Source: a virus (lineage: Duplodnaviria; Caudoviricetes). Taken from it: a DNA stretch of 30,767 nt. The stretch lies in the IMG/VR virus record IMGVR_UViG_3300020045_002281, positions 1 to 30,767 of that record. One strand, given 5' to 3'. The notes under the pieces are model-generated. The model saw only the letters and a list, made by a program, of their open reading frames with translations. It did no database searches and had not been told where the DNA came from. The position numbers were made by a program, and so were the translations under genes. Shown in pieces: positions 3 through 30,620 of this stretch. The first letter of the stretch is position 1. Every line of letters starts with the position of its first letter.

Positions 3-770
3 ATCAGTATCAAAGCCGACAATCTCAAGCCATAGTTTGCGCTCAATCATAATGCACCATCCACTGAAATGCCTGCCACATTCAAAGCCTAGCTGATTAT
101 CCAGTATGCCCTTTTGCCTTACATCAGTTGGCTCATGTGGGCTAACTACAGGATTGTCAGCAGCAAGTAGGTTATGTAGCCAGCCATTGGTAAACTCTAG
201 GTCATTATTGGCTATCATAATCCACTCAGCAGTACCCATTGCAGCGCCGTCATTGGCAAACTTATTGTAATTAAACTTTTCGCGAGTATAGACGGTCTTA
301 GCATCATGGTACTGCCCTACACCGCCCTCAATGACAATGATGTTGATAGGCAAGCCATTAGCACCATCTAAAGCAGTATCAATAGCCTTTTGGGTCATTT
401 GACTGTCGCGGTAGCTCTTTATCTTGCTCAGTATGATTAGGTCTAGCACTGGCTTACCTTGGCGCTGCTTTGCCCGGTTGTATTTCCATGCTTGGGTTTC
501 GGTAGTCTCAGCATTGTAGTCATAGTAGTAAAGCACCTTATCTATTTTGTGTTCAGTCTTTAAATGCGGCAGTAATACCTTGCCATAGCCTGCATCCTCA
601 CCATAAAGTAGGTGTGGAAAGCTAGACTTAAGCGACACAGCGCGCTTTACGCAGCAAATATGGTTAGGGATGCGAAAGTAACCATCTTTATGGTTGTAAT
701 CACGCCTATGGTCCTTAGAATAGTCACAAATCTTTGCCGGCTGGCGCTGGCTGGCAGGCGTAAGCAACAT
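3..770 (-). CDS. GT2-like glycosyltransferase, open at the window edge and probably N-terminally truncated (not in ORF track)
   Basis: Manual translation from ATG 770 is open to the edge: MLLTPASQRQPAKICDYSKD...YFRIPNHICCVKR...YGEDAGYGKVLLPHLKTEHKIDKVLYYYDY (C-terminal half of a GT-A fold), then a second GT2-like domain (LDLIILSK...NIIVIEG...FNYNKFANDGA...WIMIANNDLEF...GWCIMIERKLWLEIVGFD). Confidence 0.75.
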   Translation of the reverse strand, partial: MLLTPASQRQPAKICDYSKDHRRDYNHKDGYFRIPNHICCVKRAVSLKSSFPHLLYGEDAGYGKVLLPHLKTEHKIDKVLYYYDYNAETTETQAWKYNRAKQRQGKPVLDLIILSKIKSYRDSQMTQKAIDTALDGANGLPINIIVIEGGVGQYHDAKTVYTREKFNYNKFANDGAAMGTAEWIMIANNDLEFTNGWLHNLLAADNPVVSPHEPTDVRQKGILDNQLGFECGRHFSGWCIMIERKLWLEIVGFDTD

Positions 771-778
771 GATATAAT
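770..778 (+). promoter_or_regulatory. Extended -10 promoter for the glycosyltransferase operon
   Basis: TGATATAAT (TGn-TATAAT), followed by AT-rich DNA and a GGAG Shine-Dalgarno before ATG 806. Confidence 0.55.
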
Positions 779-805
779 TATTTTAAATAAAAGAATTGGA
801 GTAGC

Positions 806-2188
806 ATGGATGTCTTAATAAATGGTGAGCAGTACGTTAAAGCAAACACTAAGCCCTACTCAATAGGCATTGGTATAACAACACATAACCGTAACCCAAT
901 GGTACGCGACACGGTAGCCAAGCTGCAGCAGCACACACCAGGTGCAAAGATAGTTGTTGTTGATGATGCCAGCCAGATGCCGGTTAAGATCAATGGCGTG
1001 CAGGTCTATAGGTTCAATGAAAATGTAGGCATTGCCCGTGCTAAAAACAAATGCCTTGAGTTACTAAGCGACTGTGACCACCTGTTTTTGTTTGATGATG
1101 ATACTTACCCTATAGCAGATGATTGGTATAAGCCTTACGTTGAAAGCCCTGAGCATCACTTGATGTATCTGTTTACCAGCTGGGCAAATGGTACGCCGGT
1201 TGGTGACGATGCAATACTGTACCAGGATAGCCAGCATAGGGCGCACCAACATGCCAGGGGCTGCATGATGTACGTTGATAGCGTGGCATTGGCTACTGTA
1301 GGCGGCATGGATGTGCGGTATGGCAAGGCTATGAATGAACACCTTGACTGGTCAATACGCATTCACAATGCCGGTCTTACTACCTTTAGATATATGGACG
1401 TTGCAGATAGTGAACAACTTATTTATTCAATGGACCAGCACCAAGAAGCCCGTACCAGTATAGAGAATAGGCAGCAATATAATGAGGGTAACAAGCACCT
1501 ATTGGCTGAGGCTGAGGGGTCTGCTGCATTCATGCCCTATGGCAAAGATGTGGTGATTGCCTGCTACTTTGCCAATGTGTTTGATGTGCAGCGTGATACC
1601 ACATGGAAGCCTGAGCTTGATGCTATTGAAAAGCTTAAGCAATCAGTTGAGGCACATGGTGTTGAGTTTGTGCTAATCCATAACTGCTTTGACCTGCCTA
1701 ATAAGGTAGACATCACAACTACCCCATACTTTGAACGCTGGCTTAAAGAATGGCAGTATTTGCGTGACCGGCGCGACATTAACAATGTATTTGTGGTAGA
1801 TGCCACTGATGTTGATATGGTGAACAATCCATTTGCTCACCTTGAGCCAAGCAAGCTATATGTTGGTGATGAGCCAGGTAACACACTCAATAGCCGGTGG
1901 ATGGTTACCAGACACCTTGAGCCAAGCGTTAATAGATACCTAAGAGACAATGGCGCATTGCCATTGCTCAACTGTGGCGTTGTTGGTGGCAGCCGTAAGA
2001 TGGTTATGGACTTATGCCGCGAAATGTACAGCTATCATGTTAATAACCCTCAAGACCTTACTGAAATGGGCATATTCAATAAGCTTGTATACACCAAGTA
2101 TGCTGACGTTGTTGAGTATGGCAGGCATGTAACATCACTATTTAAGAAATTTGAGGTAAAAACAGATGCTTGGTTTAGACACAAGTAA
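806..2188 (+). CDS. Two-domain glycosyltransferase (N-terminal GT2 plus C-terminal GT-A-like domain)
   Basis: IGITTHNR, IVVVDDAS, NVGIARAKNKCL, LFLFDDDTYP (DxD), GGMD..YG; second domain with FVVDATDV and LLNCGVVGG. Confidence 0.85.
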   Translation: MDVLINGEQYVKANTKPYSIGIGITTHNRNPMVRDTVAKLQQHTPGAKIVVVDDASQMPVKINGVQVYRFNENVGIARAKNKCLELLSDCDHLFLFDDDTYPIADDWYKPYVESPEHHLMYLFTSWANGTPVGDDAILYQDSQHRAHQHARGCMMYVDSVALATVGGMDVRYGKAMNEHLDWSIRIHNAGLTTFRYMDVADSEQLIYSMDQHQEARTSIENRQQYNEGNKHLLAEAEGSAAFMPYGKDVVIACYFANVFDVQRDTTWKPELDAIEKLKQSVEAHGVEFVLIHNCFDLPNKVDITTTPYFERWLKEWQYLRDRRDINNVFVVDATDVDMVNNPFAHLEPSKLYVGDEPGNTLNSRWMVTRHLEPSVNRYLRDNGALPLLNCGVVGGSRKMVMDLCREMYSYHVNNPQDLTEMGIFNKLVYTKYADVVEYGRHVTSLFKKFEVKTDAWFRHK

Positions 2189-2828
2189 AACAATCAATGC
2201 GTATTGGTGGAGACCACGCACTGGACCGCACAACTTTGGTGATGAGCTTGGTGCTATCATCTTGCGTAAGCTAGGCTTCAAGGTGCGCCGCACATCGTTT
2301 ATTAAGGCTGAATACCTGCTGACCGGCACAGTGCTTGACCCTGCTGAAATAAAAAACCCTAATGCCGTTGTTATAGGCTCTGGTTCTGGGTATACCCATG
2401 ATGCTGAACACAACTTTAAAGTATTAGCGGTACGCGGCAAGCTTACTGCAGACTGCCTTAAGGTAGATGCACCACTTGGTGACTTGGGGCTATTAGCCAG
2501 CCGTATATGGGTTAAGCAGCCAGCACAGTACAATATCGGCGTTGTGCGGCACTATGTTGACCAGGATGAGTACCCGTTTGCTGACATCGTTATTGATGCG
2601 ACTGAGCCAGCAGAAGAGGTGATTAAGAAAATCAGCAGCTGTAGGGTTATTATGTCAAGCTCACTGCACGGTATCATCATTGCTGATAGCTACGGCATAC
2701 CAAATATGCGTATTGCCAGGGATGATGTAATTACTGGTGATTGGAAGTGGCTGGATCATAAAAGCGCTCTAGTGAAGCCGTTGAATGATGTGCAAGATGG
2801 GCTAATAGAGGCATTGCGGCAGATATGA
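2166..2828 (+). CDS. Polysaccharide pyruvyl transferase-like (ExoV-like) protein
   Basis: HNFGDEL, LAVRGKLT, LGDLGLL, SSSLHGIIIADSYGIP motifs. Confidence 0.75.
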   Translation: MLGLDTSKTINAYWWRPRTGPHNFGDELGAIILRKLGFKVRRTSFIKAEYLLTGTVLDPAEIKNPNAVVIGSGSGYTHDAEHNFKVLAVRGKLTADCLKVDAPLGDLGLLASRIWVKQPAQYNIGVVRHYVDQDEYPFADIVIDATEPAEEVIKKISSCRVIMSSSLHGIIIADSYGIPNMRIARDDVITGDWKWLDHKSALVKPLNDVQDGLIEALRQI

Positions 2829-3466
2829 GAATATCAATAACCATAATGGCACACCCTAAGCGCCGTAAGCAGGCTGAGGCTCTATTAGTGCAGCTGGCAC
2901 AGTACCCTTTCATACAGTGCTATATAACTTGGGATGAGGTAGGCGTTGAATGGCATACCGGCAAGAGGGCATTGCAAAAGGGAATTGGCATAGCTGATTG
3001 GCATGTAGTCATTCAGGATGATGCGCTGCTGACACCAGACTTTTACGCTAACATTGAGGGCGCTATAAAAGCCCTGCCGGTCAAAACACTGTTTTCACTA
3101 TATACCGGTACAGCAAGACCGCTGCAGCGCCGTGTTAGTGACGCTGTGGCAAAATGCCGTGATGGTGAGTGGCTGCAGTCACATCAGCTGTATTGGGGCG
3201 TAGGCATCGTTATACCATCGGACCATATAGCACCAATGCTTGAATTTGTTGAGCCTATTGAGCTGCAGTATGACAATAAGGTGGGTGAGTTCTATTGCCA
3301 GAATGGGTTGCCGGTGTATTACTGCATTCCTAGCCTGGTCAACCATGATGATGATTTGGGTACGCTTTTAGCCGGTCACGGCAAAGATGTAAGCCCTGAG
3401 CCGCGTGTTGCCCATAGGCTTGCTACTGGACCGGTTACTTGGACCAGCAAAACACACTACATCTAA
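2825..3466 (+). CDS. Phage glycosyltransferase-like protein (GT-A fold)
   Basis: IMAHPKR, WHVVIQDDALL (xDD motif), SLYTG, PSLVNHDD; ATGA overlap with the previous gene. Confidence 0.65.
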   Translation: MRISITIMAHPKRRKQAEALLVQLAQYPFIQCYITWDEVGVEWHTGKRALQKGIGIADWHVVIQDDALLTPDFYANIEGAIKALPVKTLFSLYTGTARPLQRRVSDAVAKCRDGEWLQSHQLYWGVGIVIPSDHIAPMLEFVEPIELQYDNKVGEFYCQNGLPVYYCIPSLVNHDDDLGTLLAGHGKDVSPEPRVAHRLATGPVTWTSKTHYI

Positions 3467-3470
3467 CAAC

Positions 3471-3512
3471 CACAAAAGCCGCGCCAGATGCCTCACGCGG
3501 CTTTTGTGTTTT
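3471..3512. terminator. Bidirectional intrinsic terminator between convergent gene blocks
   Basis: CACAAAAGCCGCG-N12-CGCGGCTTTTGTG perfect 13-bp stem with A/T tracts on both sides. Confidence 0.8.
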
Positions 3513-3587
3513 AAACTGCACCTCACGTGCAATTGCTGGGCTGATGCTCATAACCACTTTGGCTGACACCCAGCATATTTTACGACA

Positions 3588-4109
3588 TTAAGATTTTTTG
3601 CCAAACAGGGGTTCAAGTACCTTTGCCGCCTCTGTTTTTTCGGCTTTTTTCTTACATTGATAGCAAGTTGCCGGATCGTGGTGGTGAGCGCGTGCTGATA
3701 CTTTTGCCAGGCACTCAGAATGGTATAGTTTTATTTCACTGCACCACAATGGCGTTTTTGGCGCACCATCCCAGCCAGCGTTGCTGTGATTGACCTGCTT
3801 GCCTTTACGACTTGGACCACCACACTCAGCACACCGCGTAAATAAGCGCCTGCGCCATTTGTATAGTATGGTTGGTGATATTTGCCAATGATGGATATGC
3901 CAAGCCCATGAGCGTGTGAAGCGCACAAAATTACCCTCATCGTCATAAATCTTGTTTTTGCATACAGTCAGCGCGTCTTTGTTGCCTGGCTCAATATGCC
4001 ATATTTCAATTATTGAGTTATGGACACGGTGTTTAGTGCCATTGGCAAACTTAAGTGTTCGCCAGAATGGTGATTTTACTCTAAATGCTAATACTTCTGG
4101 GCTGTGCAT
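3588..4109 (-). CDS. Hypothetical phage protein, Cys/His-rich (probable Zn binding)
   Basis: 173-aa ORF; WHIHHWQI, CAECGG, CYQC; GAGG RBS. Confidence 0.7.
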   Translation of the reverse strand: MHSPEVLAFRVKSPFWRTLKFANGTKHRVHNSIIEIWHIEPGNKDALTVCKNKIYDDEGNFVRFTRSWAWHIHHWQISPTILYKWRRRLFTRCAECGGPSRKGKQVNHSNAGWDGAPKTPLWCSEIKLYHSECLAKVSARAHHHDPATCYQCKKKAEKTEAAKVLEPLFGKKS

Positions 4110-4118
4110 GTTATTACC

Positions 4119-4337
4119 TCATCTATTCCTATATTGTTTTTCAAGTTCAGCGCCAACAGTGCCTGGTGGGTATGGTGTCTTGCCCTCACTAAAGCCGTAA
4201 TCTGGCTTTTTGGCAGGTTGATATACAAACCAGATAAACTGCCCATCATACGCCCATTGCGGCGCACCAGGATGCTTGCGTAAAGCTTCTGGCGTACTCA
4301 GCTGGGCGTATAGGCTCATTGGTGGGAAGTCGTACAT
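4119..4337 (-). CDS. Hypothetical protein
   Basis: 72-aa ORF tightly packed in the operon. Confidence 0.6.
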   Translation of the reverse strand: MYDFPPMSLYAQLSTPEALRKHPGAPQWAYDGQFIWFVYQPAKKPDYGFSEGKTPYPPGTVGAELEKQYRNR

Positions 4338-4338
4338 A

Positions 4339-4473
4339 TTAGGCGTGCCAATAATGATTAGGTGATAGTGTGTAGTAAATTGCCGGTAGCCATAATACTA
4401 AGCCGCCAAACAATGCCCATAGTATGACACTGTGACCTTTTTGTATTCTGCTATAGTTTGCTTGCTTATTCAT
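4339..4473 (-). CDS. Small membrane protein (44 aa)
   Basis: ATG 4473 after a GGAG-containing RBS; MNKQANYSRIQKGHSVILWALFGGLVLWLPAIYYTLSPNHYWHA has one hydrophobic segment. Confidence 0.6.
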   Translation of the reverse strand: MNKQANYSRIQKGHSVILWALFGGLVLWLPAIYYTLSPNHYWHA

Positions 4474-4475
4474 CG

Positions 4476-4994
4476 TTAAAATTCTCCCTCTTTGATTATT
4501 AGCGGTATTTGATATGTCCATGAATGGGTATCTTGAGCGCGTGGTATCGGGTCTGCACCGTTAATGCTGATTGTGCCAACATCCAGGGCTTTTAGTTCAT
4601 CCAAACGCTCTATCCATTCCGGTATTAGCTTAAGTAGCCTAATGCAGCGCCCACGATCCGCCGCGTCACTTGGTGCTTGGCTGCCAAATGGACCGCCTTT
4701 TTTAACACCAGTGAAATACGCGCACATTGTCTCAGATGATATGCCGGTGTCACCACTCAGCGCCCATGCCAATGCACGTTTTTGTATGCTGCCGGTTGGT
4801 AACGGGTCTAAGCCACGCTTCAAGTATGCCATTGCTACTTTATAGGCAGTTGTTTTACCTGCAGCCTTTGGGGTAGGGTAGTGTAGCACAAAATCCTTTT
4901 CAGGGTTTTCAGTAATAAACTTAATTAGATTGACTTGGTACTCTGTGAGCTTTATGCCAAAATACTGCTCTGCAAAGCGCTCAATGTCATTCAT
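4476..4994 (-). CDS. Hypothetical phage protein, apparent two-module fusion
   Basis: N-terminal FAEQYFGIKLTEYQ...AAGKTT; C-terminal GDTGISSETM...PSDAADRGRCIRLLKLIPEW. Confidence 0.7.
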   Translation of the reverse strand: MNDIERFAEQYFGIKLTEYQVNLIKFITENPEKDFVLHYPTPKAAGKTTAYKVAMAYLKRGLDPLPTGSIQKRALAWALSGDTGISSETMCAYFTGVKKGGPFGSQAPSDAADRGRCIRLLKLIPEWIERLDELKALDVGTISINGADPIPRAQDTHSWTYQIPLIIKEGEF

Positions 4995-5527
4995 CAGATC
5001 AGCCTACTCTGCTGCGCTGCAGCTGCGTTTACTGAGTAATTAGGGCGGATGCCAACCGGCTTGCCGTCAATGTCAAAATACTCAAAGCTTGTTTGCATAG
5101 TATCTTCACCGCGACAGACTTGCCCAAAGTTCACCAGCTCATCAGACTTGCTGACAATGCTGTTATTGCGGACCAGGACATAGGCAGCCAATTGCTTTTC
5201 ACCACGTAAGAATGCCCAGCCGTTGCGTGTGATGCCCCAGCGCCCACGTATTTCTTTGCCATCATCGTCTAGCTGCTTAAAGATCAGCCCGTGTAATCGT
5301 AAATGGCTAAACCAGTTGTATTGCTTAAATTCGCTAGGCTCTGTGAAATCACGCACCATAAAGTCATTCTGCATGGTGGTCATTACGTGACCGGCGGCGC
5401 GTTTCAACATCTTAATCATCTGTTTATTAAGTAGCTCTTTGCGTGCCTGTGGTATACGTTGCCCACAGTGGTCACATTTTTCAATCTTGTTTGCCGGACT
5501 TGCTGCCGGTGGTATTACTTGTGGCAT
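4994..5527 (-). CDS. Hypothetical protein (CxxC followed by a possible winged helix)
   Basis: 177-aa ORF; CDHCGQ, LRLHGLI...WGITRNGWAFL. Confidence 0.65.
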   Translation of the reverse strand: MPQVIPPAASPANKIEKCDHCGQRIPQARKELLNKQMIKMLKRAAGHVMTTMQNDFMVRDFTEPSEFKQYNWFSHLRLHGLIFKQLDDDGKEIRGRWGITRNGWAFLRGEKQLAAYVLVRNNSIVSKSDELVNFGQVCRGEDTMQTSFEYFDIDGKPVGIRPNYSVNAAAAQQSRLI

Positions 5528-5529
5528 TT

Positions 5530-5904
5530 CTATAAACTCCTAATCTCTTTTTTAAGTTTGACCCTATCAGCGGTTGAGCTAACAAATTCATCTTTTAGCA
5601 GGCTGTAAGGTGTGCGGTATTCACCGTCTTTTTTAGTCTCTTCATCAATTACCTCTTGGTAGGCATCAGGTGTGGCGTATTTAAGCCCACCATCGTCAAC
5701 AAACGGTATTTCAGCGTATTCAACACGCTCAACATGTTCAGCAATTTGGTCTTTATCCATAGTGCCTTTGGACCAGCGCCCATAGCGCCAGCTGGCATAC
5801 TCACTTGCATGGGTAGCCCAAGACTTATAGTTGTTGCCTACGATGATCTTCACACCGTCTTTGAATATAATTTGGTACGTGCCGCGCTTTACGTTTTTAC
5901 CCAT
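5530..5904 (-). CDS. Hypothetical protein
   Basis: ORF; likely start ATG 5904 (MGKNVKR) just after the previous stop. Confidence 0.6.
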   Translation of the reverse strand: MGKNVKRGTYQIIFKDGVKIIVGNNYKSWATHASEYASWRYGRWSKGTMDKDQIAEHVERVEYAEIPFVDDGGLKYATPDAYQEVIDEETKKDGEYRTPYSLLKDEFVSSTADRVKLKKEIRSL

Positions 5905-5905
5905 A

Positions 5906-6121
5906 TCAGTCCACAATCTTTCGTGTTAGCGTTTGAAAATCTTTAGTAAGCTCATCAGCCTGCACGTAGAATGCAGCCAGCTTTTCAGATAGCTCTTTAT
6001 CCTCTGCCACAATAGCAACCTTAACGCCATCTTTGAGGTAGTGCGACACTTTCATTAAGTCGCTCTCAATCATGGTTAGGTATTTTGGCATTATGGCAAT
6101 AGCATCGTCTTTTTTACTCAT
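5906..6121 (-). CDS. Hypothetical protein
   Basis: 71-aa ORF with GGAG RBS and TAATG overlap. Confidence 0.6.
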   Translation of the reverse strand: MSKKDDAIAIMPKYLTMIESDLMKVSHYLKDGVKVAIVAEDKELSEKLAAFYVQADELTKDFQTLTRKIVD

Positions 6122-7495: not shown

Positions 7496-7765
7496 TTACT
7501 TACTCCCTTTTTTGAGCTGCCTAAATGCAGCGTTTAGTGCCGCATCCTCTTTGAGTAGCACGCGGCGGTTTTTAATATCAGTTGCGCTGGTCACGTTTGC
7601 ATCTGCAAGTAGTTTGACCAGCCTGGTTGCTTTGAAATAGCCAATACCCATAGCGCGGCTCAAATGTGCTGGGTATGGGTTGCCACTTCGGACCGTATGA
7701 ATTACAGCCTGGGTGACATCCTGTTTGTTAAGCTTCTTGCCAAATAAATCTCTATAAGCTTTCAT
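7496..7765 (-). CDS. Stand-alone FtsK gamma-domain-like winged-helix protein
   Basis: PAHLSRAMGIGYFKATRLVKLLADANV...RRVLL resembles the FtsK-gamma pattern SxLQRxLxIGYNRAARLIDxLExxG...REVL. Confidence 0.6.
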   Translation of the reverse strand: MKAYRDLFGKKLNKQDVTQAVIHTVRSGNPYPAHLSRAMGIGYFKATRLVKLLADANVTSATDIKNRRVLLKEDAALNAAFRQLKKGSK

Positions 7766-10467: not shown

Positions 10468-10677
10468 TTAAATATATTTGCTTATGTACTTATCATTTGG
10501 GTCAAGCCGTTTGTGCAGCTTAAACAAATGGTCTTGGTAAAATTCAACCGCACGCTTTTGGGCATTGGTTGTTACTGGTCTCTGGGTATTTATGCTGACA
10601 TTTTGGCGCTCTGCTTTTACCAGATTAAGCAGGGTCTTGCGGTCTTGGTCTTTAACTTCAACTTTTACGCTACTCAT
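10468..10677 (-). CDS. Hypothetical protein
   Basis: 69-aa ORF with ATGA overlap to the MTase gene. Confidence 0.55.
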   Translation of the reverse strand: MSSVKVEVKDQDRKTLLNLVKAERQNVSINTQRPVTTNAQKRAVEFYQDHLFKLHKRLDPNDKYISKYI

Positions 10678-11615
10678 GCTGACAATATCCTTTCAAACAC
10701 TGATTGTATTACGTTTGTAGTAACAGCGTTGCCAAGCATCTTGTAGCGCTGCCGGTCAGTATACTCTTCATTGTTGACACCGTTTGCCGTCCAGCCGTCT
10801 GGGAATGCCTGCAGGCGCTCACATTCAGTTGGTGTGAGGCGGCGCAATCTGCCATCTGCAGCTACGGTGTATATCCACATGCCGGTATCAAGGGTTGGTG
10901 ACACATCGCTTACCCTGCCGCGCCTGGACCGGCTGTTTGGCATTGATAGGTTGACTGCCTGACCTGGTGAAGCCATTGCAAAGCCTGCAACCGTAGCCTC
11001 TGGTATTCTTACTTGCGGCTGGCTGGCACGCGCTTTGGAATTATCACGTTGTTGGTTATCTTTGCCTGTTGCTCTGCTGAAAGGAAATACTTGGGGTCTA
11101 CCTGATCCTCTAAGATGTCCGACAATAATAATCCGGTCTCTGTTGTGCGGTACTGCGTGATTTGTGCTGTTAATAACTTGCCATTGGCAATCATACCCCA
11201 GCTCATCAATGGTTTTGATGATGGTTCTGAAAGTTCGTTTGTTGTCGTGTAGTGTAAGCCCCTTGACGTTTTCAAATACGAATAGTTTAGGTTGTTTTGC
11301 TTGCAAAATTCTTGCAAGGTCAAAGAATAATGTGCCTCTGGTATCTTCAAATCCTTTGCCGCGTCCAAGTATGCTGAATGATTGGCACGGAAAGCCGCCC
11401 ACCAAGCAATCAAAGTCTGGTAGCTCTGCCGCATCAATTTTTGTAATATCCCCATAATTCTTTACCCCCTTAAAGTGTCGCTCATACACGGCAATTGCGT
11501 TTTTATCTATTTCACTGTAGCCAACATACTCAACTTTTGCGCCGGATCGATCCGCTGCATGGTCTATACCTAGCTCAAAGCCACCAATGCCGGTGAACGT
11601 ACTAAATACTTTCAT
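10674..11615 (-). CDS. DNA (cytosine-5) methyltransferase
   Basis: Motif I FTGIGG, IV GGFPCQ, VI ENVKGL, VIII HNRDRI, IX RRLTPTECERLQAFPD, X YKMLGNAV. Confidence 0.95.
   Translation of the reverse strand: MKVFSTFTGIGGFELGIDHAADRSGAKVEYVGYSEIDKNAIAVYERHFKGVKNYGDITKIDAAELPDFDCLVGGFPCQSFSILGRGKGFEDTRGTLFFDLARILQAKQPKLFVFENVKGLTLHDNKRTFRTIIKTIDELGYDCQWQVINSTNHAVPHNRDRIIIVGHLRGSGRPQVFPFSRATGKDNQQRDNSKARASQPQVRIPEATVAGFAMASPGQAVNLSMPNSRSRRGRVSDVSPTLDTGMWIYTVAADGRLRRLTPTECERLQAFPDGWTANGVNNEEYTDRQRYKMLGNAVTTNVIQSVFERILSA
11009..11455 (-). CDS. Nested alternative-frame ORF, similar to the beta polypeptide of split C5 methyltransferases
   Basis: 148 open codons inside the MTase in another frame on the same strand, with SWGMIANG...LLSDILEDQVDPKYFLS near its end. 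Confidence 0.55.
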   Translation of the reverse strand: MGILQKLMRQSYQTLIAWWAAFRANHSAYLDAAKDLKIPEAHYSLTLQEFCKQNNLNYSYLKTSRGLHYTTTNELSEPSSKPLMSWGMIANGKLLTAQITQYRTTETGLLLSDILEDQVDPKYFLSAEQQAKITNNVIIPKRVPASRK

Positions 11616-11875
11616 CGCACTTTAGCCTTGAGTGCTGCGGCTTGCTCATCTGAAATTATAAACTCTGTACGAATAGCAATCTGACCGGTTGACTTAAGAT
11701 CACCCAAGCTAATCCTGTCTGGTATGCCGTCAGTAATTACCATTTGTTGCAGGTCAGCTGCGCCAGGGTAGTTTTTTAGTACCTGTTCACGCTCTTGCTT
11801 TTTGAGCTTGGCGTAATAAGATTGGTCATTGTCACCAAAGTCTTTATACCGTGTGGTTACTTCTGCTTTAGGCAT
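11612..11875 (-). CDS. Hypothetical protein
   Basis: Likely start ATG 11875 (MPKAEV); ATGA overlap with the MTase gene. Confidence 0.55.
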   Translation of the reverse strand: MPKAEVTTRYKDFGDNDQSYYAKLKKQEREQVLKNYPGAADLQQMVITDGIPDRISLGDLKSTGQIAIRTEFIISDEQAAALKAKVR

Positions 11876-12377
11876 TACTAGCACCCCCAATTACATTTTC
11901 TTTGTAGTATTTGCCAGGCGCTTTGCAGTTTTTGAGCGCGGTTGCCATGTATTTTTGGTTGATGCCTTTACGTTCTGCATATTCCAGCAGCTCAACCATA
12001 CCGGCTTGCCCATTCACATTGACAAATTCCTGCGCTTTTCGCACCCAGAACTTGTGATATTTACCAAAACCAAATTTAATCAGCTTGTCATTTAGCCATA
12101 GGGCAGCTTCACCAGCCACCTCTTTAACAGCCTCAACAAACTTATATGTTTCATCGCGTACCATCTTGCACAGCTTTGCAAAGTAACGGCTAGGCTGCTC
12201 TTTGGTGAGCGCCAGGGCAATCATTTTACCCCATTCCTCAGCCTTACCAGCCTTTTCAAGCTTGATTTGTACGGAACGGTAGAATGGCAAAAAGCTCTGA
12301 TTGTCTATCAGTTGGGCTGCTTCCCCTATTCTGTCCAGCATTGTTTGAGTCCGCTGGTCACTCACTGTGTAAGACAT
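11868..12377 (-). CDS. Hypothetical helical protein next to the origin-like region (candidate replication protein)
   Basis: ATG 12377 after GGAGGG; two similar halves (ALTKEQPSRYFAKLCK / AERKGINQKYMATALK). Confidence 0.6.
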   Translation of the reverse strand: MSYTVSDQRTQTMLDRIGEAAQLIDNQSFLPFYRSVQIKLEKAGKAEEWGKMIALALTKEQPSRYFAKLCKMVRDETYKFVEAVKEVAGEAALWLNDKLIKFGFGKYHKFWVRKAQEFVNVNGQAGMVELLEYAERKGINQKYMATALKNCKAPGKYYKENVIGGASNA

Positions 12378-12408
12378 AAGTACCCTCCAATTCATTTGTC
12401 TGTACTTC

Positions 12409-12438
12409 AATATAGCACTAAGTAATTTGATTTGCCAA
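12409..12438 (-). promoter_or_regulatory. Promoter
   Basis: TTGGCA-18 nt-TATATT with a TG extension. Confidence 0.5.
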
Positions 12439-13081: not shown

Positions 13082-14578
13082 CTATATCATAACCTTTTGG
13101 GTGCTACTACCGGTAGGTTTATATGTTTTTGCATATCGCATTGCCCCGTAGTTACAGAATGCCGCACACTCAGTTGGGTCAATCTGAAAATCTGGGTTCA
13201 TGCTGGCGTACCCAAACATGCCGTCTTTACCAATGCTGCGCTTTTTGGCTGTCTTAATACTGCCATTCAATGCTGGTTGATCGTAGTGGGTCATGGTGCG
13301 CTGCACAATTGCCGTGTCAAACGCTGCGTAAGCCGCCCCAGCCTCTTTTGCATTGGGTGTTAGTATCTTCTTACTAATTCGCTTGTCAGTGCGTACCAGC
13401 TCTTCTACAAGTAGCTGCGTGCCGCTTGCGCCGTCAATGATGATTTTGGCAGCCTTGCGCCACCGGTCTTTGGTTTTATCAAATAGCCAGTTGGTTATCC
13501 AGTACGTGCCTGCGCTCATTGGCTTGCGCTCAACCAACTCAACATGGACCGTATCATTAGGCATGTATACACCCACTCCCAGGCTCACAGCGCTGCCGTC
13601 CGGCGCAAACTTGATGCAATACACCAAACGTGGCTCAGGCTCTAGTGTGACCTTTTTAACGGCTAATTGCGCCCAATGCTCATCACTAATGGCACGCTTG
13701 CTTTCAATGCCTGCTATCCAGCCCAGGCGCATTTTGTTGAAGCTGTCTATTGCCATGTCTTTGGCTTCATTGCGGACCGCCATAATCATCAGGTGGTAGC
13801 CCAGTGATGGGTTTGCAGCATACCATGCCTCTTCATCGCTAGGATCGGTAAGCAACTCAACTGACCACTCTTGCCAACAGGTATCATGGTCTTTGCCGGT
13901 AATGACGTTGTAGCGTATACGGATGAACACAGTACCATTGCCGCCACCGCTTGGTGGTGTACCGGCACGTATGATCTGCTGATTTTGTGACTTACCGGCT
14001 GAAATGGTTGGTAGCAATGCCTCTTGCTGCGCGTCAGTCTCTTCTTGCGCCTCATCCAGTATCAGGGTGTCATTGGTAGTACCCAGCCCACCGGTACGGG
14101 TTCGCGTCCTGAACACACAGCGCCCACCGCCACGCGTCTCAAGGTAATCAAGGCTCTTGGGGTCTTTATCAAACTCTGCAGTAAGCAGGTTGCGTATCTC
14201 TTCTTTGGCATTGTAAAAAAAGTTTTGAACGCGGCGCTTCACTTCGTCAACAGTCTTATCAGAGTGGGCAGTATAAATTAGCGCTTCATCCATGAATATC
14301 ATGCCGCCAATAATACGGGCAATAATAATCTCTGTCTTACCATTCTGGCGTGGCACAAGCAGACCGGCTTTTGGGTTGGACCACATCCACTTTTCTAAAT
14401 CATCATCCCAGTACACTGCCAGCCAGCGGTAAATAACAATCTTCTGCCATAGCAATAGGTGAATGCCATAGGCTTCCATCAGCTGTATGGTTTTATCAGC
14501 AAGCCAAATATCGCCATTATTCCATTGGTCTAAACGGGGCTTCTGATTGCCGTAACGCTTCTTTTTATTATTTGCCAT
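13082..14578 (-). CDS. terL: Terminase large subunit
   Basis: LLLWQK, Walker A VPRQNGKTE, YTAH, Walker B LILDEAQE, GTPP, ANPSLG, C-terminal nuclease domain; start ATG 14578 after GGAGG. Confidence 0.95.
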   Translation of the reverse strand: MANNKKKRYGNQKPRLDQWNNGDIWLADKTIQLMEAYGIHLLLWQKIVIYRWLAVYWDDDLEKWMWSNPKAGLLVPRQNGKTEIIIARIIGGMIFMDEALIYTAHSDKTVDEVKRRVQNFFYNAKEEIRNLLTAEFDKDPKSLDYLETRGGGRCVFRTRTRTGGLGTTNDTLILDEAQEETDAQQEALLPTISAGKSQNQQIIRAGTPPSGGGNGTVFIRIRYNVITGKDHDTCWQEWSVELLTDPSDEEAWYAANPSLGYHLMIMAVRNEAKDMAIDSFNKMRLGWIAGIESKRAISDEHWAQLAVKKVTLEPEPRLVYCIKFAPDGSAVSLGVGVYMPNDTVHVELVERKPMSAGTYWITNWLFDKTKDRWRKAAKIIIDGASGTQLLVEELVRTDKRISKKILTPNAKEAGAAYAAFDTAIVQRTMTHYDQPALNGSIKTAKKRSIGKDGMFGYASMNPDFQIDPTECAAFCNYGAMRYAKTYKPTGSSTQKVMI

Positions 14579-15404
14579 CTGCCGCCTCCAAATCCTCAAT
14601 TGTTACTCTTGATGCAAAACTAGTATGCCGTGCGCCTTTGCCGTTTTCGCTGGGGCGTTTGCGCTTAATGTCCGGCATGTCTGACAGCAATGCACCCAAT
14701 GGCGTTTCAGCCTTTGGCTCTAGCCTGCGCTTGTATACATCAATCTGGGTCATAACTTCCATCATTTGAGCTGATAGCTGCCCTGCATCGCGTGCGCCAG
14801 CACCTTGCTGCAGTTTACTTGCCAGCTCATCACGGATAGCCTCAAGCACGCCCATGCGGTTGTTTTCTTTGGCATGATCCACAATAGTCTTTTCTGATTT
14901 GCCGCCATTTGTGAGACCGGCGCGGTGAATGTTTTTAATGCGGCTTGGGTTACTGATAATGTCATGCCAGAATGCCAGCGCTGCATAGCCCTCAGTTGGC
15001 AGCACATCAAGCCCAGTGGTTGCAAGTAAGCGTATCACGTTTGGTGACAGGGTTTTGAAATAGTTTAGCCAGCCATCGTAATTGTCTTGCTTGGTGAGCC
15101 GTACTTTTAGGTTCTCTTCATTCCAGTCTTTTGTCAGCTGAACAAATTGTTTGTTCGTTCGTTTCATAAACCACTTTTCAAACATTTCATCAGTGATTTT
15201 AGGCTGAACAACTTTTTTAATTACCTTTTTGGTAATCTTTTTGCTTGCCTTAGCAGCTGGCTTTTTACCCTTAATGGGTTTGCTAACAGTAGTAGGCTTG
15301 GCAGCTTTTGGGGTTGCCTTAACAGCCGCCTTACTTTTCTTAGCGGTTTTTTCTGGGGTTATATCCTCAGCTTCACCACTAGGCTTACTACTCTTTTTGG
15401 GCAT
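14568..15404 (-). CDS. Terminase small subunit-like protein with a Lys/Ala-rich N-terminal extension
   Basis: Overlaps the terL start; C-terminal helical RMGVLEAIRDELASKLQQGAGARDAGQLSAQMMEVMTQID; N-terminal ~70 aa rich in K/A/P. Confidence 0.55.
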   Translation of the reverse strand: MPKKSSKPSGEAEDITPEKTAKKSKAAVKATPKAAKPTTVSKPIKGKKPAAKASKKITKKVIKKVVQPKITDEMFEKWFMKRTNKQFVQLTKDWNEENLKVRLTKQDNYDGWLNYFKTLSPNVIRLLATTGLDVLPTEGYAALAFWHDIISNPSRIKNIHRAGLTNGGKSEKTIVDHAKENNRMGVLEAIRDELASKLQQGAGARDAGQLSAQMMEVMTQIDVYKRRLEPKAETPLGALLSDMPDIKRKRPSENGKGARHTSFASRVTIEDLEAADGK

Positions 15405-16006: not shown

Positions 16007-16025
16007 ATTGGAGGCAGCAACACTT

Positions 16026-16445
16026 ATGGACCGGACACCAAAAAAGCCTTGCAAGCATTGCGGGCTGATGGGGCATTACGCTTACGCATGTTATCAAAAT
16101 CCAAAACGCGCACTCAAAGCACTCAAGCGCACTGAGCTTAAACGATCAACAAAGCCAATAAATAAGATAGGCAAAACAACCAAGCAATGGTTTATCACGC
16201 GTGCCAGCTGGATCAGAAAAAACCCACCTGATGCCAATGGCTACTGGGAATGCTATTTAAAGATACATCCCTGGTGTCCTGGTCGCGTTGATATTAAGCA
16301 CCTCACACTGGACCATGTAGTAAGCCGGTCACGTGACCCCAGCCTGCGTTTCAACCTCAGCAACTTAAAGCCTGCCTGCAGCTACTGCAACACCGAAAAG
16401 GGCAGCAAGTCGCTTGACTATGTGAAGCAAGCGCCTGTACAATAA
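16026..16445 (+). CDS. HNH endonuclease (NinG-like) with an N-terminal Zn knuckle
   Basis: CKHCGLMGHYAYAC; LTLDHVVSRS...FNLSNLKPACSYCNTEKG; GGAGG before ATG 16026. Confidence 0.85.
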   Translation: MDRTPKKPCKHCGLMGHYAYACYQNPKRALKALKRTELKRSTKPINKIGKTTKQWFITRASWIRKNPPDANGYWECYLKIHPWCPGRVDIKHLTLDHVVSRSRDPSLRFNLSNLKPACSYCNTEKGSKSLDYVKQAPVQ

Positions 16446-26127: not shown

Positions 26128-26165
26128 GTTGTTTTCTCCAATTCTAGTTTGTTATCGTAAGCACA

Positions 26166-26206
26166 ATTATAGCATAAAGAAAAGCGCCCAGACTAGCCAG
26201 GCGCTT
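26166..26206 (-). terminator. Terminator after the major tail gene, followed at once by an extended -10 promoter (TGCTATAAT, 26166-26174)
   Basis: AAGCGCC-TGGCTAGTCTG-GGCGCTT-TTCTTT. Confidence 0.7.
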
Positions 26207-26225
26207 AACTCCGAATTACCGCTTA

Positions 26226-26786
26226 CTAAGAAGCGATTGCCGCAATGTACTCTTTGTGAGAGTCACCGTCATCAGCTGGGAATGCCTTAAGGTTGATTGG
26301 GTAAGCAACAGGCTCACCGTCAACATAAGAGATTTCCGCGCTACGGTCAGCGATGCGACCCCGTTCAACCACGATACGCTTCACGCGTCCGCCGGTCATA
26401 ACGAGTTCTGCAACAAACACGATTTCAGGCAATGTTTTACTATTGACCTTAATTGTGATGTTTTCACCGTCAACTGTGACGTTATCCTCACCATAGTACA
26501 GCTTGGCAACTTCTGCGTTCGTCTCAATGAGGTTGAACGTAAACATTTCCATGAATGTGGTTTGGTCTGACAACACGTTGTCACCGCCCCAAGCAAACAC
26601 ATCTTCTACGTCAGCCTCAATGTTGTTCACCAAGCCTTCATCAGACACATAGCCTAGATTTGCAAAAGCAGCGTCTAGGTCAGATGTGGCGTTTGTTGGT
26701 ACTGTCGTACCGGCAGGGGCTACGAATAGCGCACCTAAAGCTTTTGGCTTACCAAATGAGACGTTTTGAGAGTCGTTATTAGCCAT
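26226..26786 (-). CDS. Major tail (tube) protein
   Basis: NVSFGKP, APAGTTVPT, LGYVSDEGL, AWGGD, FNLIET. Confidence 0.9.
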   Translation of the reverse strand: MANNDSQNVSFGKPKALGALFVAPAGTTVPTNATSDLDAAFANLGYVSDEGLVNNIEADVEDVFAWGGDNVLSDQTTFMEMFTFNLIETNAEVAKLYYGEDNVTVDGENITIKVNSKTLPEIVFVAELVMTGGRVKRIVVERGRIADRSAEISYVDGEPVAYPINLKAFPADDGDSHKEYIAAIAS

Positions 26787-26854
26787 AATGGTTTTTTACT
26801 CCGTAAACTTGTTGGCACAACTACCGTGTTTCAGGCGCTCTGCTTATGGTTTAG

Positions 26855-26863
26855 ATTATAGCA
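26855..26863 (-). promoter_or_regulatory. Extended -10 promoter for the major tail gene
   Basis: TGCTATAAT. Confidence 0.55.
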
Positions 26864-27223
26864 CTATTTTTCTTGATCGTTAAAGTTTTCACTTGCAAGT
26901 TTATAAATACGCCATAACAAGTACGATAATAGCAGCGTTTGCAGGTGTACAGTCATTGAGTATATAAAACTAAGCAGCTGCACAGTGCCTGGTCTGCCGG
27001 TCTCATGGAATAGTGTAACAATGTTGATGCCAATAGGTATCAAGCCCATGATGATGATAGTCAGCGATATTGCAAACAGCGTATTACGAAAACGGCGCAC
27101 GTGCCGGTCAGTGATAGGGTACTTAAATAAGCTCACCTGTTTCACTATAACTTTGATAATAAAATACATTGCCACTGCGCTGATGGCAAGTAAAATCAGT
27201 ATGTACGGTATTAAATCTATCAT
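26864..27223 (-). CDS. Three-TM membrane protein
   Basis: Three hydrophobic segments; ATGA overlap. Confidence 0.7.
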   Translation of the reverse strand: MIDLIPYILILLAISAVAMYFIIKVIVKQVSLFKYPITDRHVRRFRNTLFAISLTIIIMGLIPIGINIVTLFHETGRPGTVQLLSFIYSMTVHLQTLLLSYLLWRIYKLASENFNDQEK

Positions 27224-27450
27224 TTTTTCCCACTTCTCTTGTTTGTTGGCTGATGCCCACCAGCCGCTAGGTATATTTTAAGCGTAAACCCATTTTCTAC
27301 CAATAGGTCATTTAGGTGTTTATTTGTCTCTTGCGCTTTTTGCGCGGCATCTTCACTGGCTGATTTATGCAGCTCTATCTCAACACGGCTAGAGACAGCC
27401 GGTTTGACTACAATAGGCTCTTCTTGTGGCTTTCGCCTAAACCATCCCAT
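27220..27450 (-). CDS. Small hypothetical protein
   Basis: 76-aa ORF coupled to both neighbours. Confidence 0.65.
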   Translation of the reverse strand: MGWFRRKPQEEPIVVKPAVSSRVEIELHKSASEDAAQKAQETNKHLNDLLVENGFTLKIYLAAGGHQPTNKRSGKK

Positions 27451-27452
27451 AA

Positions 27453-27764
27453 TTATCGCCTACCTTTCACAGCTTCTATCTTGCCTGCCATTAACTCTTG
27501 CGACTGTGCAACGCCTAGTAACACCGTTTGGTCATTCTTAGCCATTTCACGATAGTCTGTTGTATGTATTTTATTATCTTCTAGCCGCGCGTTCTGTAAT
27601 AAATCTATCTTAATGTCCTTTTCGTCAATCTTTTTAGTGAAGTAGTTCCACATAAAGCGAATGACGATAATGAGGGCAATGACAGTTACACCAAGCACAC
27701 CTTGAGTGAAGTAATAACTGATTGGGTCATTAGGTGGCGTGACTGCCGCAAGGTAACTCAACAT
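27453..27764 (-). CDS. Single-TM plus coiled-coil protein (BhlA/UviB-like architecture)
   Basis: FTQGVLGVTVIALIIVIRFMW followed by a charged coiled coil. Confidence 0.55.
   Translation of the reverse strand: MLSYLAAVTPPNDPISYYFTQGVLGVTVIALIIVIRFMWNYFTKKIDEKDIKIDLLQNARLEDNKIHTTDYREMAKNDQTVLLGVAQSQELMAGKIEAVKGRR
27482..27598 (-). repeat. Internal copy of a 117-bp segment that is inverted-duplicated at the window end
   Basis: Its reverse complement equals 30651-30767. Confidence 0.95.
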
Positions 27765-27766
27765 GG

Positions 27767-28216
27767 CTATGAACTTTCATAAGGGTCATACATGCTGCTG
27801 CCAGGCACGGTGCTTATGCTGGTGAGGCGTTGCGTACCGTAAAGCCCCAGGTCATGCAGCTCAGACTTTTTAAACCACAAATCACCGGCAGGGTTGGTAA
27901 ATACAATGTTTTCAGAGTATGGACCGGCTGTTTGCTGGATGCTGTTTGCTGGTGGCGCGTCAATAGGTGTGAGCATGGCACGCTTTGCAGCTTCCATGAC
28001 TACCCACTGGGCTGTTGAAAAGTATGCAGGGCTTGCATTTACTTTAGCGTCCAGGTCAACGCCCACATTGTCAGCAATGATGCGTAAGCGGTTGCTGGCG
28101 CGTGTTAGCAGATCAAGCGCACGGGTTGTATTATCCGGTGCTTTCCAAAACGCGGTTAAATCATCCACATTTGCGTATGGGTTAGGTGACACTACTGGTG
28201 TTGTTACGCCTGCCAT
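27767..28216 (-). CDS. Head-to-tail adaptor (Gp19/Gp15/Gp42-like)
   Basis: YANVDDL, LLTRASNRLR, QQTAGPYSE, NPAGDLWFKKSELHDLGL. Confidence 0.85.
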   Translation of the reverse strand: MAGVTTPVVSPNPYANVDDLTAFWKAPDNTTRALDLLTRASNRLRIIADNVGVDLDAKVNASPAYFSTAQWVVMEAAKRAMLTPIDAPPANSIQQTAGPYSENIVFTNPAGDLWFKKSELHDLGLYGTQRLTSISTVPGSSMYDPYESS

Positions 28217-29562
28217 TACTGTGTACCTCCATTATTCATAAAGCTGCCGCCAGAAGCCGCCAGGCGGCGTTTAACAAGCTCTTCTGCCTGTCTGATGCCA
28301 ATACCCATCATACGGTAGCCCTCAACAGTACCAACAAGCTCTGGCATTGCCTGGAATAGCTTAAACATAGCGTCACCAACCTGCCCAATGTCTGCCTGAA
28401 ATATAGGCTTCCATGCAGGTATCAATTGGCGTAATTGCGCCGGTACATTGTCATTGCCGTCAAGCGCTAGGCGTAGGGTTATCATCAGCTCTTTAAATTG
28501 CTTGCCCATTTCGTCTTGGCAGTTCTGCGCTTCAAGTAGTAGATCATCTGACATTGCAGCAAGGCTTTCAGCGCTGCTTGGGTTGCCGGTCTCATAGCCC
28601 AGGTTGCGTAGTGTCAATGCAGTCTCAGCACAGAAGTCACGGGCTTTATCTTTTTTGGCTGTCTCAAAGCCGGTGATGCTCATTTGCTGTAGCTGACCAA
28701 TTTCAGGGTGGTTACCCTCTTCATCTACATTGATTGCCCAGACCTTACCAATGGCACTATCAAGTGCTGGGTCTTTTTCAGCGCCCTCAGCAAGTCCACT
28801 AATGTAGCGCTGTGGCAGTGCATAAAACTCTTCTGCAATCTCTTCACGGCGCTTGAGCCGTCCAACTTCATTGATGATGCGGCGTGCTGTGTTGCTCAGG
28901 CGTGACTTACCAAGTGGGCGGTCAGCGCTCTGGCGGTGGGTAACTGGGTGCAATAATGTGCGACCCGTAGGGTTTGGCTCAATTCGGGCAAGTACCCTAT
29001 TCTCAAAGATTGCGGTAAATTCAGGGGTGAACAGGATATAATCTTTAGGCGCAAAGTTGATGCCAGCCTTTTTAGGCTTTGGCACATGCCACTTAGTAAC
29101 AGCCAGACCCCACTTAAGTAAGCCTGTGCGCTGGTCAACTTCACCGGTAGCCTCAAGTGCTGTAAACGGTACAAGCACCTTTGGCGTGCTTGATGGCAAT
29201 GGTGCATCAGATACGGCAATAAAGGCACAACCGGCAATAAAGGCATCATGCTTGGCTTTGCTCAGTACGCTAAAGCCGCCAATGCTATCCATGTAGTCAT
29301 TGATGCCAGCAGTGTCACCAGCAAAACCGTCAAACGCTACACGATCAGATAGCGTGTTTACGGCGCGACCAGCCCAGCCAATACCAGGGCGCAAATTACG
29401 CATTCTTATAGGGGTAGAAATGCCCAAGTCAGGCAAGTCATTATCAGCATTGTAATAGTCGTATTTGTCTTGTACTTTTACTTGCTTTGAGGTAAGGCAA
29501 TAAATCTGCCTGCTGGCTAGAGAATTTGCGATGTCTACGATGGGGTTTTGTTCCGGCTGCAT
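28216..29562 (-). CDS. Portal protein (SPP1 gp6-like)
   Basis: 448 aa; YDYY, GWAGRAVNTLSDR, RPLGKSR, EFYALPQRYISG, NPSSAESL. Confidence 0.88.
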   Translation of the reverse strand: MQPEQNPIVDIANSLASRQIYCLTSKQVKVQDKYDYYNADNDLPDLGISTPIRMRNLRPGIGWAGRAVNTLSDRVAFDGFAGDTAGINDYMDSIGGFSVLSKAKHDAFIAGCAFIAVSDAPLPSSTPKVLVPFTALEATGEVDQRTGLLKWGLAVTKWHVPKPKKAGINFAPKDYILFTPEFTAIFENRVLARIEPNPTGRTLLHPVTHRQSADRPLGKSRLSNTARRIINEVGRLKRREEIAEEFYALPQRYISGLAEGAEKDPALDSAIGKVWAINVDEEGNHPEIGQLQQMSITGFETAKKDKARDFCAETALTLRNLGYETGNPSSAESLAAMSDDLLLEAQNCQDEMGKQFKELMITLRLALDGNDNVPAQLRQLIPAWKPIFQADIGQVGDAMFKLFQAMPELVGTVEGYRMMGIGIRQAEELVKRRLAASGGSFMNNGGTQ

Positions 29563-29585
29563 TGCTTATTGCTTGTCCTTTTAAG

Positions 29586-29636
29586 CCAGTTTTACCGCAA
29601 CCGTCAGCGTAGTTGTTATTGGTTGTTATTATACCA
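29586..29636 (-). promoter_or_regulatory. Extended -10 promoter plus conserved leader motif, copy upstream of the portal gene
   Basis: TGGTATAAT-N16-TACGCTGACGGTTGCGGTAAAACTGG. Confidence 0.7.
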
Positions 29637-29662
29637 GATATTGTAATTGTAGCATAAGTGCT

Positions 29663-30100
29663 TTATGATGTGCGCTTTGCTCTGCGTTTTGCATCAGCTT
29701 TATTATACTCCTCACCTAAAAAGCCCTCTGGTAGCTCTTCAACTCTTACGAATGCGCCAGGCTGACCGGCGCGGTATTCTGCTTGCACTTTCATTAGCGG
29801 CACGTGCTGCCACTTATCATCAGGGATCAGCAGCGCCTCACTGAACATGTCAAGCAGGCTAGTCACCTTATTATCAATGTCGGCTTTGCCAATAGTGCCA
29901 AAATATATAATCACCTCTAGGCTGACCGGCTTAAAGAAGCGGTGGCGCGTCTGGCGGCGCAACTCAACAATTGACTCATCTTGCCACTGAACAAATTTTT
30001 TGTTCGGGAATGACAGCCCATCTTTGGTATTTATACGTGAGTTCTTTTTGCTGGGTATTGTACCCTTAAAGATTAGCTCAACGGTCTTTGGGTTTGACAT
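29663..30100 (-). CDS. RusA-like Holliday junction resolvase
   Basis: GTIPSKKNS, ADIDNKVTSLLD, IPDDKW; start MSNPKT at 30100. Confidence 0.8.
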   Translation of the reverse strand: MSNPKTVELIFKGTIPSKKNSRINTKDGLSFPNKKFVQWQDESIVELRRQTRHRFFKPVSLEVIIYFGTIGKADIDNKVTSLLDMFSEALLIPDDKWQHVPLMKVQAEYRAGQPGAFVRVEELPEGFLGEEYNKADAKRRAKRTS

Positions 30101-30620
30101 AGTTGTTAAGCAACCCATTACGCGATTTATAGCCCTCAGTGCGTATATTGCAGTCACAACCGCCGTGCCGGTGAAATACCTCAGCCGGTGGGTTAGTATA
30201 TTCACCTGCTTTGGATGTACACCATTTGCAGGTCTTGCCATTGGTTGTACGGATCACTCTGGTATACTTGCCGCTCTCACGGGCGTATTTGGCAGCATCA
30301 TGCTGCGCCTGGCTTGCTGCGTAGTCTAAGTAATTCTTAACGTACTCCTGCAGCCCCAGTGCGCCGGTGGCAACGCTGGCGGATGCTACTTTTGCCAGCC
30401 CATAGTAACGCTCATCAATTCCTGGACCGGTAGTATAGTCAATTTCAAAGTCAAAGGCATTCATGTCATAGACTTTGGTATAAACTGCCGCGCCCACTTC
30501 CCTAAATAATATCTCTTGGTTGAGCTGGCGTATTTCTGGGTCAATTTCAGGGTTGTTAATCAGCTTGAGCGCTGCCATGACCTTATCAATGATAGTGCGG
30601 TTTAATTTAGCGTAGTCCAT
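30078..30620 (-). CDS. MuF-like minor head / head morphogenesis protein
   Basis: RTTNGKTCKWC...FHRHGGCDC; likely start MDYAK at 30620. Confidence 0.7.
   Translation of the reverse strand: MDYAKLNRTIIDKVMAALKLINNPEIDPEIRQLNQEILFREVGAAVYTKVYDMNAFDFEIDYTTGPGIDERYYGLAKVASASVATGALGLQEYVKNYLDYAASQAQHDAAKYARESGKYTRVIRTTNGKTCKWCTSKAGEYTNPPAEVFHRHGGCDCNIRTEGYKSRNGLLNNYVKPKDR

Follow-up and report, generated by a model that had tools for sequence, protein, structure and literature searches.

A strand-polarized GGTCC word in a clade of tailed phages, probably read by the host and Chi-like in behavior

Why a phage should carry a short, quasi-palindromic word almost exclusively in one orientation is the question raised by IMG/VR virus record IMGVR_UViG_3300020045_002281, of which positions 1 to 30,767 (the window, meaning the whole stretch of 30,767 nucleotides) were analyzed. 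The window is from a tailed phage and encodes terminase, portal, tail, lysis, and glycosyltransferase proteins; the full phage genome is probably about 33 kb, and the host is probably a member of the Saccharibacteria. The plus strand contains 35 copies of GGACC and a single GGTCC, at position 710 (binomial p of 1.1e-9), which gives exact form to a ratio of about 35 to one estimated in an earlier note on this DNA. The analysis indicates that this polarity is real and selected and that the word is probably read by the host; it is Chi-like in behavior, and its membership in the Chi class is proposed. Read on the minus strand as GGTCC, the 35 co-oriented sites, counted directly, span positions 1432 to 30428 and lie at 1432, 2223, 3220, 3428, 3441, 3814, 4690, 5170, 5770, 6773, 7027, 7452, 7690, 8880, 9111, 10239, 10332, 10926, 13546, 13774, 14378, 16028, 16310, 16818, 16972, 17122, 18604, 20457, 22803, 23021, 23835, 24674, 24719, 27921, and 30424. 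Every one is intragenic, and together they are spread over all three reading frames. The context is YGGACCR (YGGTCCR on the minus strand) at 31 of the 35, as the earlier note had remarked, and all of the positions it quoted are correct except 13545, which should be 13546. The lone site pointing the opposite way (710 to 714, plus strand) lies within a left-end gene that had been suspected of being inverted, a suspicion that comparison with relatives supports. The control words GGATC and GATCC occur 16 and 15 times, in line with the balance claimed for them.

An artifact of codon usage or gene strand is ruled out by a synonymous-codon shuffle with the genes split by strand. In the minus-strand genes of the window, the favored orientation occurs 28 times against 7.3 expected and the other orientation once against 15.1; in the plus-strand genes, the values are 7 against 2.9 and 0 against 0.9. 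The latter genes, three glycan-modifying genes (806 to 3466, plus strand; five sites) and an HNH endonuclease gene (16008 to 16445, plus strand; two sites), are antisense to the structural genes and serve as gene-strand controls, and their seven GGACC and no GGTCC are the numbers first reported for 806 to 3466 and 16026 to 16445. The claim that the bias exceeds codon usage on both gene strands thus holds, with excess and purge in each gene class. Raw skew alone does not single out GGTCC, because the raw p values of five other 5-mer pairs in the window are smaller (GCTCT, 56:1; CTCTT, 65:5; TCTTT, 80:16; TCTTC, 44:2; and CTGCG, 36:1), so a check for equally skewed words goes against GGTCC in the window and leaves it unique in the pooled clade.

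Relatives were collected as 161 loci from IMG/VR, of which the complete ones are about 33 to 35 kb, and were oriented by the terminase large subunit (13082 to 14599, minus strand, in the window), so that the word reads GGTCC on the top strand; a quick version of the terminase tree was used. The dereplicated set comprises 69 contigs of at least 10 kb (1.37 Mb in total), among them the trimmed window and a contig from the Saccharibacteria genome G286. In the genes of these contigs, GGTCC occurs on the top strand 1,308 times against 451 expected and in the other orientation 52 times against 530, and 62 of the 69 contigs are polar. In 16 loci analyzed early, the favored word ranks first of 1,024 5-mers in sense genes, with enrichment in all frames (226 against 56.7), and is also in excess in antisense genes (53 against 14.7), while the reverse word is absent from both (0 against 79.5 and 0 against 4.9, respectively). 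Where an Asp codon falls in G|GAY|C, GAC is used at 0 of 54 positions in sense genes versus 28 of 33 in antisense genes. In the pooled clade, no word but GGTCC combines a purge on one strand with strong enrichment on the opposite one in sense and antisense genes alike, which carries the window's independence of gene strand over to the relatives. The word occurs about once per kb genome-wide and is denser in the right half (1.5 to 1.7 per kb) than in the left (about 1.0; 19 contigs). Two mutational or compensatory origins were rejected: compensation for GGCC avoidance, since the enrichment persists in GGCC-tolerant genomes (28 against 6.3), and deamination of GGCC to GGTC, since among the GGTC words only GGTCC departs from expectation. 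A relaxed polarity (17:7) is seen in L048, a partial contig in which no recombinase was seen.

The word is also found beyond the clade. Saccharibacteria genomes were located through a published 16S rRNA primer (given in the excerpted text of PMC6073563), and the clade terminase profile, run on this one bacterial class, matched 2 of 401 genomes. A phage contig in G286 has a terminase with 46% identity and a word count of 31:0, and one in G270 has a terminase with 44% identity and a count of 6:6. The clade profiles for FtsK-gamma and LysM-CHAP proteins match host genes, and a single-sequence terminase scan of GTDB contigs gave no match. Terminase matches numbered 29 in 24 of the 401 genomes; of the 20 loci fetched, 3 are polar (13:0, 12:0, and 12:0) and belong to a single family of related prophages carried on long chromosomal contigs, and 17 are not. 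A prophage in G248 has a terminase of a different family and tRNA attachment sites, and it carries GGTCC 23 times against 11.9 expected and GGACC 0 times against 20.3, ranking first both ways. Because this prophage is polar at 23:0, the word is common to unrelated phages of the class.

One complete member of the clade has exchanged the word for another. In G001 (L162+L022), whose terminase is 87% identical to those of its sisters, the GGTCC pattern is lost (7:10), and GCGCG is present 28 times against 7.7 expected, with its reverse at 0 against 7.1. CGCG is kept almost solely as GCGCGG or GCGCGT in one direction, with GCGCG(G/T) at 29:0. This swap suggests another host. Four genes near the left end are unique to G001.

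At least one host chromosome, that of G347, carries the same preference, which is weak or absent in others. Raw counts gave 619:532 around rRNA operons (80 loci) and no skew in G006, and this raw null also stands, as the host signal emerged only with gene-strand stratification and with the reading of most of G347. The later host counts drop genes with more than 8 Gly-Pro pairs and leave out 11 of the 80 rRNA loci (ten of another group and L206, which is counted with G006). A collagen-like host gene of G248 (L359:18041-19435) gives, by its Gly-Pro repeats, a false polarity of 23:1. By gene strand in the pooled hosts, GGTCC ranks third of 1,024 for leading-strand preference. GAGGG and AGGGG come first in these samples, a hint of canonical GGGNAGGG-type FtsK-orienting polar sequences (KOPS), for which octamer counts are small (5:2 for GGGNAGGG in G347). 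In lagging-strand genes of six host sets pooled, the preference is significant at 89 versus 44 (p of 0.003). In G347 (513 kb read), GGTCC ranks first of 1,024 for gene-strand-independent skew, which flips with GC skew, and YGGTCCR stands at 118:33 (78% on the leading strand), with 76 versus 41.1 in leading genes and 35 versus 28.9 in lagging genes. AGGTCC, GGGTCC, and GGTCCC are unskewed there, so the flank rule is that of the phages. A dif-like site was placed in G347 by the dif motif; the skew is 5:2 within 30 kb of it and 14:5 at 30 to 60 kb, and far from it 30:4 and 18:4. The prophages in G347 and G248 have more than 20 sites that point against the replichore.

Enrichment is lowest in phages with recombination genes of their own. 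A survey of all phage loci (120 accessory proteins scanned, plus BLAST) found such genes only in L081 (a Rad52/22 protein over the cut-off), in L062 (a YqaJ protein over the cut-off and, as an Atlas lead, a putative annealing protein), and in the G270 phage, which has a homologue of the latter protein. The observed-to-expected ratio is 0 in L062, 0.15 in L081, and 0.89 in the sister of L062 (L106+L061), and the G270 contig has its 6:6; the median enrichment of the 65 other contigs is 3.0. In L062, its sister, and L081, the reverse orientation is still missing, so that the purge and the enrichment are separable. This is the distribution expected of Chi, which is enriched and oriented in recombinase-less phages and not in recombinase-bearing ones, within a small recombinase-bearing sample. 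The comparison is confounded, because L062 and L081 have also changed their replication initiators to other, known types, and the family of the 11868-12410 protein of the window was not found there.

Any explanation has to account for the polarity, the enrichment, their independence of gene strand, the occurrence of the word in unrelated phages, and the leading-strand skew of G347. We consider it somewhat better than an even bet that YGGTCCR is a Chi-like signal of Saccharibacteria hosts that is kept by recombinase-less phages and whose inverted copies are removed by restriction. A host helicase-nuclease would enter a free DNA end, presumably from the right end of the phage genome, meet YGGTCCR from the 3' side, stop degrading there, and pass the end to recombination; this taming of the nuclease would protect phage ends and may supply concatemers for packaging. 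Recombinase-less phages would thus keep about one correctly oriented copy per kb. Inverted copies would be of no benefit and would probably be removed by restriction at GGACC or GGWCC, for which a type III enzyme needing inverted pairs would be the simplest agent. The geometry is that of Chi, since the word lies on the leading strand in the host and on the terminase-sense strand in the phage and is met from the 3' side in both. The candidate reader is a single-chain UvrD/PD-(D/E)XK protein of about 1,100 amino acids: one such chain of 1,100 to 1,185 amino acids, AddA/RecB-shaped and below all AddA/RecB cut-offs, is present in five of five host genomes (for example, L362:14882-18436, minus strand). 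The earlier note had offered either evasion of a host defense or an oriented signal for a translocase or packaging process. Evasion fits the purge, and an oriented signal fits the enrichment and the host skew; of the second idea, the oriented host signal is retained, and the evidence prefers a Chi-like signal to KOPS or packaging variants, because the skew does not rise to dif, the prophage sites are oriented counter to the replichore, and the recombinase-bearing phages are unenriched.

Several observations weigh against a Chi-like host signal. Chi alone does not predict the purge, and a second PF12705 (PD-(D/E)XK) match, as for an AddB/RecC-like Chi-scanning partner, was not found in the host genomes, which have one match each. 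In hosts, GGTCC is not clearly over-represented: its ratio in G347 is about 1.0, and in G248 it is avoided in both orientations, GGACC/GGTCC being the most under-represented 5-mer pair of that genome (106 versus 307 in chromosome samples). Chi sites lie to about 75% on the leading strand of a host chromosome; here the skew is weak in G248 and the rRNA flanks and weaker in G286 than in G347, the leading-strand genes of G006 are without it (33/58.6 versus 35/57.0), and no single set of lagging-strand genes is significant alone (p of 0.07 to 0.37). The recombinase-bearing group consists of three phages, two of them distant, and the partial contig L116+L043 is unpolarized (12:13) without a recombinase being seen. 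The clade contigs are related, so their pooled counts overstate independence, and 15 of the 28 GAC cases trace to a pair of codon contexts that recur. For the window's own clade the host is a probable one, the profile search having covered a single bacterial class. As a tentative and rather doubtful extension, the Chi system may be of a new build, in which one helicase-nuclease chain without a RecC/AddB subunit reads a quasi-palindrome by its central base; phages would have to carry the word, hosts would target it by restriction, phages would delete the inverted copies, and a change of host would rewrite the word, as with GCGCG in G001.

Restriction evasion alone, with a type III-like enzyme needing two inverted GGACC sites as the purging agent and the excess as a by-product of other avoided words, is unlikely, although it explains the purge well. 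Intact type III Mod/Res genes are present in G248, G286, and G347, and G332 has a split Mod and a fragmented Res, against a rate of 33 of 301 genomes in the class; no such Mod was found in G006. The profiles PF12564 and PF19778 pick up too few of the host type III genes (1 and 7 of 151). A predicted type III motif, GGACCG, is given in Table 4 of PMC8259958 as excerpted, the excerpted MANTIS preprint describes one-strand enrichment of type III sites too, and the avoidance of the word on both strands in G248 is of the kind that restriction would leave. The clade also has many words that are purged from a single strand and occur on the other at close to the expected number: among 28 contigs of at least 21 kb (median about 1 on the other strand), CGCAG is flagged in 15, CGAAG in 6, and CACAG in 5, and such purge-only words (CGCAG and CGAAG) fit type III restriction. 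GGTCC differs from them in being flagged in 20 of the 28 with a median of 2.95; it stands at three to four times expectation, whereas CGCAG on its kept strand is near it (284 against 276). The excess of GGTCC is present also in GGCC-tolerant genomes and where the alternative GGATC is freely used. The host target-recognition domains are of 19 types among the 20 extractable (of 32), so one allele is unlikely to have acted across 62 of 69 contigs and an unrelated phage family, and restriction predicts neither the host replichore skew nor the loss of enrichment in recombinase-bearing phages. The argument of the earlier note that only one strand carries an A to methylate is unnecessary, since type III systems using N4-methylcytosine exist (PMC8259958, excerpted text) and there is no A in the substitute word GCGCG. 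The purged 5-mers are lineage specific (CGCAG, AGAGC, GAAGA, GGACG, CGAAG, CACAG, ACAGC, and others, with about 20 in L076), and the set is a possible record of the type III specificities that were met. The type III Mods L389 and L392 (G248 and G332) are 87 to 90% identical in their flanks and have different target-recognition domains.

That the word is a start site for the host primase DnaG, marking lagging-strand priming in one-way phage replication, seems distinctly improbable. The spacing of about 0.85 kb is slightly even (mean coefficient of variation of 0.85 versus 0.96), the leading-strand density in G347 is one per 2.7 kb, no phage primase was detected, and the word resembles TGGTC, the T7 primase site. 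Against this, known DnaG sites are trinucleotides, a purge would not follow from priming, the word is scarce in the G248 chromosome, and the switch to GCGCG in G001 would demand quite a different primase. It is not fully separable from the Chi-like signal, because the recombinase-bearing L062 and L081 also changed their replication initiators.

A KOPS-like loading site for FtsK or another DNA pump, with permissive sites favored and nonpermissive ones harmful, would explain both halves of the pattern and is similarly improbable. Two-sided selection and the leading-strand skew of G347 agree with it; the hosts have FtsK, and the clade often has a stand-alone FtsK-gamma-like protein (7496 to 7765, minus strand, in the window; found in 39 loci) whose profile matches host FtsK. 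The G347 counts near and far from the dif-like site do not show the rise toward it that the 90% criterion in the excerpted PMC3384302 would require, the sites of the G347 and G248 prophages run counter to the replichore, and the solo gamma gene is absent from 10 polar contigs covering its place and from the G248 and G286 phages. The solo protein could compete with host chromosome segregation. Neither it nor phage methyltransferases, such as the C5 DNA methyltransferase at 10674 to 11615 (minus strand), which is patchy across the clade, is required as a cause of the polarity.

A phage-encoded reader, either the packaging motor or a conserved replication protein, is very improbable. In its favor, the clade-wide family of the 11868-12410 protein has a member in the G248 prophage and gave no match in L062, L081, or the G270 phage; against it, the polar G286 phage likewise gave no match, G001 keeps this family at 77% and the terminase at 87% identity with another word, and the host chromosome follows the same flank rule.

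The protein at 11868 to 12410 (minus strand) is an all-helical, two-domain protein with a probable role in replication, and the G248 prophage has a homologue next to its integrase (L353:12121-12510). An Atlas search gave no match for it, and its structural model (predicted local distance difference test score, pLDDT, of 75) had no structural match above a Z score of 6.0, with only a DnaD domain at 4.2. The 53 open reading frames of the window yielded no integrase, recombinase, Gam, primase, or polymerase, and no close isolate phage was found, the best terminase match having 33% identity. The truncated glycosyltransferase gene at 3 to 770 (minus strand) has the same sense as the terminase and portal genes in the window, and its homologues are antisense to them in six of six relatives. 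The reads placed on 1 to 6000 are those of the relatives' contigs, with none over 1 to 741; because this part is uncovered, reads do not separate an assembly artifact from a natural inversion, and the left end is either an assembly chimera or a natural inversion. At the right end, 30637 to 30767 is an inverted copy of 27482 to 27612 (97%), with no site inside, and is likely a chimeric contig end, so that both ends of the window (30637 to 30767 and 1 to about 780) look inverted or chimeric. Of 28 contig starts inspected, nine fall at one shared point, and other contigs read through it; this shared start and the HNH genes adjoining the terminase make fixed, cos-type genome ends probable. The starts of L088, L089, L090, L122, and L127 and the right end of G005 point to a probable cos end with a 3' overhang; the contigs start at one point that immediately follows a short conserved stretch.

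The analysis provides a concrete candidate Chi-type site for the Patescibacteria, with a candidate reader that seemingly lacks the usual Chi-scanning subunit, and both are experimentally accessible, given the genetic system for Saccharibacteria reported in the excerpted text of PMC10633639. The word can serve to mark the host of orphan metagenomic phages, and it might aid transformation with linear DNA; the comparison of purge-only with purge-plus-enrichment words on one genome offers a general means of distinguishing restriction avoidance from a functional signal. No report of the GGTCC word or of Chi in Patescibacteria and no Saccharibacteria methylome paper on GGACC were among the literature matches listed, with subscription journals, supplements, and REBASE outside the scope of that search.

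Chi-rich phages and type III evasion are already known. Recombinase-less lambdoid phages over-represent Chi with a median of 3.12 (PMC3784561), and top-strand Chi is concentrated rightwards in phages, with MD8 at 32:0 (PMC12315714), according to the excerpted texts. As these excerpts describe them, the Chi-rich lambdoid phages LLS and MD8 resemble the present clade in having no detected recombination module, one word enriched about threefold on the terminase-sense strand and denser rightwards, loss of the enrichment with a recombinase of their own, and probable fixed, cos-type ends. Their Chi is a G-rich octamer, whereas the word here is a quasi-palindrome of 5 to 7 letters whose opposite orientation is actively purged, in a host class of the Patescibacteria in which a RecC/AddB partner was not found in the host genomes and over-representation in the host is weak. 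With the evasion of EcoP15I by T7, as excerpted from the MANTIS preprint and PMC8259958, the clade shares the genome-wide loss of one orientation whatever the gene strand, and hosts with type III systems; CGCAG, CGAAG, and CACAG behave like those co-oriented sites, whereas GGTCC is enriched at silent sites, common to unrelated phage families, and skewed on a host chromosome. Like KOPS and the SpoIIIE recognition sequences (SRS) read by FtsK and SpoIIIE (PMC3384302, excerpted text), the word is short and leading-strand skewed, with both orientations under selection; unlike them, its skew does not rise to dif, and its prophage copies run against the replichore.

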